DNA of 64,000 bases. Origin: Eledone cirrhosa (Eukaryota). The notes under the pieces were generated by a model. That model searched no databases, was not told the DNA's origin, and saw nothing but the letters and a program-made list of their open reading frames with translations. Position numbers and translations under genes: made by a program. This document shows, one piece after another, positions 17,639-18,060 of the stretch. How positions within the stretch are numbered: position 1 is the first letter of the stretch; each line of letters opens with the position of its first letter. The stretch is from positions 325,872,001-325,936,000 of the forward strand of contig OZ024742.1 of assembly GCA_964016885.1 (NCBI GenBank), read 5' to 3'.

Positions 17639-17723
17639 TACCCATCTTCCGGCCTCTCTAGAGAATCGTAAAAGCACATATCGTTATATGCTTTTTCTAT
17701 GAAAATTAGTAGTGGGCATACTA

Positions 17724-17731
17724 ATTTGCAT
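17724..17731 (-). promoter_or_regulatory. Octamer motif ATGCAAAT, one per 467-bp unit
   Basis: Exact octamer ~86 nt upstream of the HHR on the ribozyme strand; conserved in family 2. Function is inferred. Confidence 0.45.
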
Positions 17732-18060
17732 AGAGTGTGAGTAAGTACCGGTTCAACGGAGACGATAAAAACAAATAACGAAACGAAATTAAACCTCGTT
17801 TCATTTGTAACTCACTTTTGTATGACTGACGCTTAAACAATTAAGTTAAAGATGTACATCCATATATGTATACTGAAATACTAGTATGTATATGAATACA
17901 CACACGTATACATATGTAGATGTACCAAGTTTTTTCACTGGTCACTTTACTGTGAGTGGCCAGCTATTCTGTATGTAAACACACAGACAAACCGGTTTTT
18001 AGAGTCATACTGGTTTTTGAGGAAACACCTTTCCTCTATTCTCCAGAAAGCCAGACAAGG

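Follow-up and report, generated by a model that had tools for sequence, protein, structure and literature searches.

Retrozymes, the mobile tandem repeats that carry hammerhead ribozymes, are assumed in a review to be transcribed by read-through, because promoters seem to be absent from them (PMC7761336). The promoter of newt satellite 2 has stood apart among animal retrozymes. A cluster of hammerhead repeats in the octopod Eledone cirrhosa, within the 64,000-nt stretch of contig OZ024742.1 analysed here ("the window"), bears on how such elements reach high expression and raises the question of whether each repeat unit brings its own promoter. A sequence-only reading of the window had proposed that an octamer upstream of the ribozyme marks such an internal promoter of the snRNA type.

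Two arrays of the first repeat family (family 1) are joined head to head in the window. One, on the minus strand at 17372..19916, consists of 5.4 copies of a 467-bp unit, and the other, inverted and on the plus strand at 19913..21591, of 3.6 copies; their 3' ends join (AT)n at 17372 and 21591, the latter end lying 74 nt deeper into the unit. A family-2 element of about two 422-bp units follows on the minus strand (21640..22460, left edge approximate), and next to it an inverted partial family-2 copy on the plus strand (22463..22680) with a one-mismatch octamer at 22526-22533 and an intact hammerhead core. Hammerhead cores are found in 8/8 family-1 units, each complete unit having a stem III of 2 bp and the palindromic sequence ACUAGU; the type I hammerhead of the unit described below occupies 17594..17638 (minus strand), with its predicted cut between 17601 and 17600. 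The exact octamer ATGCAAAT occurs 17 times in the window against 6.0 +/- 2.4 times in shuffled sequences, and ten of these matches fall in eight family-1 and two family-2 units, all on the ribozyme strand; since the eight family-1 copies are near-identical, their excess over chance is to be counted as one event, not eight. From the octamer start to the CTGA of the hammerhead there are 100 nt in family 1 (8/8 units) and 80 nt in family 2 (2/2). The distances of about 86 and 67 nt in the sequence-only reading agree with our measurements from octamer end to stem I (85-86 nt in family 1 and 66 nt in family 2), and the upstream block that it described as common to both families does align, at 74% over 39 nt. 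No octamer accompanies the 8 other hammerhead-like motifs of the window (0/8).

By every testable feature of their sequence, the family-1 and family-2 repeats are non-LTR retrozymes, scattered through the genome with (AT)n as the insertion site. Family 1 is young as well as dispersed (329 genome candidates, of which 40 were scored and are 99% identical), and family 2 has 1498 genome candidates, the 40 scored showing 94-97% identity. The arrays hold no ORFs of at least 90 aa, and the fold of the family-1 unit is far more stable than that of shuffles (z -11.5). An Rfam search of the window returned no match at the gathering score; the family-1 copies at genomic locus L009 match Hammerhead_HH9 at E 1.3e-6, their 37.7 bits falling short of the cut-off of 52. 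Family 1 also occurs in other samples, where the kind of contig is not recorded and common variants are few, and no box variant exceeds 2% in the deepest of them; these sample data were not used as evidence.

The upstream elements were compared with those of the animal's own U1, U2, U5, U6, U6atac, MRP, RNase P and 7SK genes. We took the polymerase class of each gene to be that indicated by general knowledge together with terminal T runs. An extended octamer box, TATG(C/G)(A/T)AAT(T/G)AG, is located at -76 to -78, with a TATA box at -30, in U6 (three separate loci), U6atac and MRP. At that position the box is found in 0/12 dispersed lower-scoring U6 copies, in 0/5 lower-scoring U6atac copies and in neither of loci L104 and L105, a contrast between genes and copies that is not fully independent because the true genes were judged partly from the same motifs. 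The U1, U2 and U5 genes have no octamer nearby (two chance-placed ones occur near -400 in U1), and in their promoters AATTA lies near -91, followed by TCAGT as the core (-55 to -58) and by a TATA-like box around -30. The 7SK and RNase P genes, which are also without the box, carry TCAGT 33 and 32 nt ahead of TATA and end in T8 and T9. A one-mismatch octamer was seen in the 7SK gene (L264:1380-1390) near -118, beside a TCAGT core at -64. The distance from core to TATA is 24-27 nt in 14/14 host Pol II promoters and 30-33 nt in 7/7 host Pol III genes, the core of the five octamer-type genes being set by analogy at octamer +16, a position noticed after the fact. A 3' box resembling AAAWCAGAYT is present at 9/13 host Pol II loci, and a TTAYYTCCCT-like distal motif near -260 (-257 to -288) at 11/20 loci. 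Because the box sits at -76 to -78 while the distal motif differs from it, the octamer is a proximal and not a distal element in this animal. The earlier assignment of the octamer to an snRNA distal sequence element is therefore not supported, and the distal motif of the host is absent from 6/6 retrozyme units scanned.

The units of the window match the host arrangement in order and strand. In the first family-1 array the extended octamer box TATGCAAATTAG at 17721..17732 (minus strand) matches the proximal element of host U6, U6atac and MRP (16.1 bits, rank 1 of 894), and further boxes follow every 467 nt, at 18191, 18658, 19125 and 19592 on the minus strand and at 20224, 20691 and 21158 on the plus strand. 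Downstream on the minus strand lie the PSE-like core position at octamer +16 (17712..17715), a degenerate CCAC in family 1, and, 25 nt after this core and thus at Pol II-type spacing, a weak TATA-like box GCATATAAC (17683..17691, 4.7 bits). Unit a of family 2 has its box TATGCAAATTGG at 21921..21932 (minus strand), core TCCG at +16, TATA at 21883-21890 and hammerhead at 21815-21857; in unit b the box is at 22343..22354 (minus strand), core TCAG at 22334-22337, TATA at 22305-22312 and hammerhead at 22237-22279, with the hammerhead core changed to CTTACGA. Likeness to host snRNA genes, which an internal snRNA-type promoter would imply, was thus found, the box matching that of U6/U6atac/MRP and being joined by a TCAG-type core and a TATA-like box. 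The inverted near-octamer that had been paired with the octamer fared less well as a second site: it belongs to a local hairpin, of which it forms the far arm (17698..17709, minus strand), reading ATTTTCAT in family 1 and ATATGCAT in family 2, with two or more mismatches in families 3-6, and is not conserved across families. Forty nucleotides ahead of the octamer is a hairpin with a T5 run (17767..17815, minus strand, the run at 17767-17771), a block common to family 2 and one of two recurrent insertion ends. Eight nucleotides upstream of the box stands a YCRC motif (17736-17740, minus strand, and equivalents) that is kept in 5/6 families and is not found in host genes.

When a matrix built from the five host box sites (leave-one-out scores of 12-19 bits) was run on the retrozyme representatives, 12/12 scored 16.1-20.5 bits; in each of them the box ranked first among 894 sites. 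The highest score among the 14 Pol II promoters was 4.3 bits. The longer box common to the host U6/U6atac/MRP genes and the retrozymes is TATGCAAAT(T/G)AG. All nine columns of TATGCAAAT are identical in the six family representatives, against 0.31-0.45 in the flanks and 0.62 at +16 to +19; the families share ancestry and are not independent, and the family-3 representative, like the ribozyme-only pattern used below, derives from an octamer-based search. Within families conservation across genomic copies is nearly flat, with a modest excess in family 2 (octamer variation 0.005 vs 0.023 elsewhere in 46 copies, small numbers). The expectation that the octamer is conserved above its flanks is hence borne out between families, where it is invariant, and hardly within them. 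A pattern spanning box to hammerhead, designed to miss most family-1 and family-2 copies, gave 1444 matches in the genome and 0 in the control and revealed further families; a ribozyme-only pattern gave 3889 and 1. Among the first 100 ribozyme-only matches listed, all on contig C1 and about four in five belonging to family 4, 68 span the box position, of which 52 have the exact box, 15 one mismatch and one a worse match; 30 end short of the box, with the exact octamer at that place in 0/30, and two end inside it.

Family 4 (L180, L200 and L215; contig C1) outnumbers the other families in the ribozyme-only search. It carries the box plus GATCAG core module three times with a 33-nt period, and the sequence of its upstream modules, GATCAGTGGAT, is also that of the host U2 PSE at L053. 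Among 150 of 221 matches listed, family 4 resembled neither 7SK nor any other Rfam RNA, and its low-score Rfam miRNA matches were rejected as microsatellite artefacts.

Outside family 1 the core is often close to the host form: TCAG stands at +16 in 56/62 family-2, 7/8 family-3, 34/42 family-4 and 4/12 family-5/6 copies, and in 0/6 of family 1, where CCAC is present in 6/6 (-9.7 bits, rank 140 of 896). Measured with a single TATA matrix and the same search range throughout (two unclassified rows excluded), the distance from core to TATA is 24-29 nt in 119/130 retrozyme copies and 30-34 nt in 5/130. From octamer to TATA there are 40-45 nt in the repeats vs 46-48 nt in the genes of the host, a shortfall of roughly half a helical turn, and the TATA-like scores of the repeats (medians 2.8-7.1) are below those of the host (7.4-12.6). 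The exact retrozyme combination of box, TCAG core and 24-29-nt spacing was found in no host gene among the 8 RNA families compared. A clear host-type 3' box was not seen in the repeats. In family 4 (L200) the sequence AAAAACTCAGATT differs by one base from the host snRNA 3' box; it is located about 160 nt downstream of the hammerhead, immediately before that family's recurrent 3' junction, and was not seen in families 1-3. Majority runs of T4-T6 occur in and just ahead of the promoter. Taken together, the spacing and the T runs that would have to be crossed for a promoter-bearing monomer to be made favour Pol II. The 5' truncations were considered as a guide to the start site, 9/32 box-to-ribozyme boundaries falling close to the predicted start (+64 to +75), in a bin chosen afterwards; several of them are inversion joints at the stem I edge and other clusters lie at AT microhomologies, and we dropped them as a weak hint.

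The polymerase is the point on which the promoter reading is most readily disputed. The same promoter might be of the U6 type (type 3) and used by Pol III, or by both polymerases, which we consider unlikely, though less so than the other alternatives discussed below. Transcription would then start just ahead of the hammerhead, most transcripts would stop at the T5-T7 run, and rare read-through would give the promoter-bearing monomer. The distribution of the box in the host speaks for this, since it occurs in 5/7 Pol III genes vs 0/14 Pol II promoters (U1/U2/U5), as does the likeness of the family-1 core region to the degenerate CC-type core of host U6. The predicted PSE of Schistosoma japonicum U6, which begins GTGCGAATGAG, is like the box at 9/11 positions (PMC5460494), and schistosome hammerhead repeats are described as users of Pol III (PMC6765202). 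In families 1-4 no majority run of T>=4 lies between the predicted start and the T5+ run, vs 8 runs of A>=4; per-copy shuffle tests of this T-free body are weak (p 0.06-0.58, not significant), and family 5 breaks the pattern, having runs of T4/T5 some 100-120 nt downstream of the start of the core. Against Pol III use stand the octamer-to-TATA distance, which is too short, the near-absence of Pol III core-to-TATA spacing, and the two or three T runs to be crossed before the promoter is copied. That spacing should matter is in line with plants and flies, where the choice of polymerase is set by spacing or PSE sequence (PMC9652321).

Two further readings would deny the box a role as a proximal promoter element. 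It could be kept for RNA structure, or as a protein site on RNA or cDNA in retrotransposition, the repeats being transcribed by read-through from flanking genes, which we regard as improbable. The very stable fold of the unit, the nearly flat conservation within families and the view of the review cited at the outset that metazoan retrozymes seem to have no promoters are all consistent with such a role, and the box is about 90% paired in RNA folds of families 1-2, while in family 3 TCA pairs with TGAG. The pairing partners differ among families, however, while the box strand is invariant, so that a conserved helix does not explain the box; nor would RNA structure predict the three-part match to host promoters in order, strand and spacing, and the triplication of the module in family 4 also argues against it. 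Very improbable in our judgement is the remaining reading, that the octamer is a distal, orientation-independent Oct enhancer serving a PSE 150-200 nt away in the same or the next unit. The box looks like an extended POU site, which counts in its favour, and vertebrate DSEs have an octamer at -250 to -170. The host U1, U2 and U5 genes, by contrast, have another motif and no octamer at the distal position, and in all families the box lies on one strand at a fixed offset to core and TATA.

We therefore return to an internal snRNA-class promoter in each monomer, with its parallel in newt satellite 2, as the best reading of the sequence, the octamer being proximal rather than distal as first supposed. 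That the retrozyme units have a built-in promoter of the host snRNA class, more probably served by Pol II and read through into the next unit, we hold with even confidence. SNAPc would bind the promoter, perhaps aided by a POU/Oct factor, and transcription would start roughly 26-29 nt upstream of the hammerhead core of family 1, in a predicted start region at 17651..17660 on the minus strand (17657-17660 by host Pol II geometry and 17651-17655 by host U6 geometry). Because there is no host-type 3' box, the polymerase would carry on into the following unit. A pair of hammerheads, which probably work as a dimer by way of ACUAGU, would then excise a 467-nt monomer that holds the promoter in its 3' part, by which a gene-external promoter would become inheritable. 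Once closed into a circle, this monomer would serve as template for a Penelope-type RT/GIY-YIG protein, which would go round it and write the copies into (AT)n, so that tandem and head-to-head arrays result. Bolder, and in our view unlikely, is the idea that the promoter is a chimeric SNAPc promoter, a U6-type octamer module with Pol II spacing found in no host gene examined, which tracks the promoter code of its lineage, has three modules in one family and may be used by Pol II, whose read-through would supply the circles, as well as by Pol III, for linear RNA ending in T; in that case animal retrozymes in general, from newts to molluscs, would transcribe themselves by means of captured snRNA promoters.

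As to the mobiliser, a broken Penelope-like element (PLE) lies at 13229..17297 on the plus strand; a hammerhead-like motif of its own is at 17063, and an octamer is absent from it. Its Pfam RVT_1 match (E 8e-4) is below the cut-off, and its GIY-YIG motif was read by eye, Pfam giving no match. We regard it as a candidate for the kind of mobiliser involved, separate from the promoter. PLEs are known for inverted copies, ends that are offset and insertion at microsatellites (PMC8557442), and the head-to-head inversion, offset ends and (AT)n targets of family 1 resemble these features; a sequence link to the PLE ends of the window was not found, comparison for descent from those ends having given microsatellite matches only. 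Family-1 arrays meet (AT)n at two fixed positions, 74 nt from each other, both in the window and in 4/5 other arrays. This fixed offset (17372 and 21591; loci L009-L020) exceeds the 30-40-bp tail described for PLEs. The six complete family-1 window units compared have in common three bases that are absent from 13 rows of five other arrays, in both orientations, as expected if they were copied from one template; the alternative to the proposed round-the-circle copying by a PLE enzyme is local amplification after insertion. At locus L110 (1400-1620) a U6atac pseudogene is fused directly to an inverted family-4 retrozyme piece, which suggests template switching by the same reverse transcriptase. 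Further broken PLE copies were noted at 31680-34173 and 36995-39118, with pieces near 8570-9250, 25787-26344 and 47736-48218; the window's copies have RT and GIY-YIG-like frames, read by eye, and some have their own hammerhead-like motifs and lie in (AT)n, these motifs being at 17063, 29849, 29935, 36789 and 58222. Other hammerhead-like motifs, with a long stem II or a different stem III and no octamer, lie at 24081 (minus), 28195 (plus) and 57343 (plus), and broken LINE-type reverse transcriptase frames, CR1/RTE/Tx1-like by eye, at 10300-11940 and 52150-55100.

Lineage-matched snRNA promoter motifs kept across thousands of copies in six families make the question of retrozyme expression testable, and they show how a ribozyme in tandem units could allow a gene-external promoter to be inherited by a mobile element. 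The comparison also yielded the snRNA promoter code of this animal (box, core and the 24-27 vs 30-33 rule), which is useful for U6-driven guide-RNA tools. In the literature searched, with subscription journals and bioRxiv supplements outside its scope, no prior report of such a promoter in molluscan or cephalopod retrozymes was found.

Compared with known systems, the repeats share with the SNAPc-class promoters of their host the octamer box of U6/U6atac/MRP, the TCAG core of U1/U2/U5/7SK/RNase P and the TATA-like box, and differ from them in having neither the distal motif nor a clear 3' box. The Sm-alpha hammerhead repeats of schistosomes have an internal promoter of the tRNA type. They are likewise ordered promoter then hammerhead, and tandems are needed there because cutting leaves the promoter at the 3' end of the monomer, but they are described as SINE-like Pol III elements, whereas the motifs here are those of upstream snRNA-gene promoters (PMC6765202). 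With metazoan non-LTR retrozymes (Cervera and de la Pena 2020, PMC7229834; Li, Clavereau and Pollet 2026, bioRxiv 10.64898/2026.07.22.740005) the repeats have in common AT-rich tandem units, of 150-500 bp in those described, a type I hammerhead, the lack of an ORF, a stable fold and occurrence together with PLEs. The 2026 preprint ties retrozymes to PLEs, and the words "promoter", "octamer" and "snRNA" do not occur in the portion of its text covered. The closest parallel is newt satellite 2 (Coats, Zhang and Epstein 1994; Cremisi et al. 1992), also a tandem type I hammerhead repeat with a short stem III and an internal snRNA-type promoter, for which Pol II read-through was proposed and an snRNA-type Pol II promoter is cited at second hand (PMC2220036, PMC6765202). 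The octamer box of Eledone differs in being proximal, matching the U6/MRP element of the host, and is followed by a TATA-like box; it is shared by six families with units of 380-510 bp, and the promoter is here predicted from sequence. The newt promoter is said to combine an octamer with a PSE. If the promoter described here is real, the retrozyme would by analogy work like newt satellite 2, but without a distal element and with the host's own motifs, in a combination found in none of the eight host RNA families.
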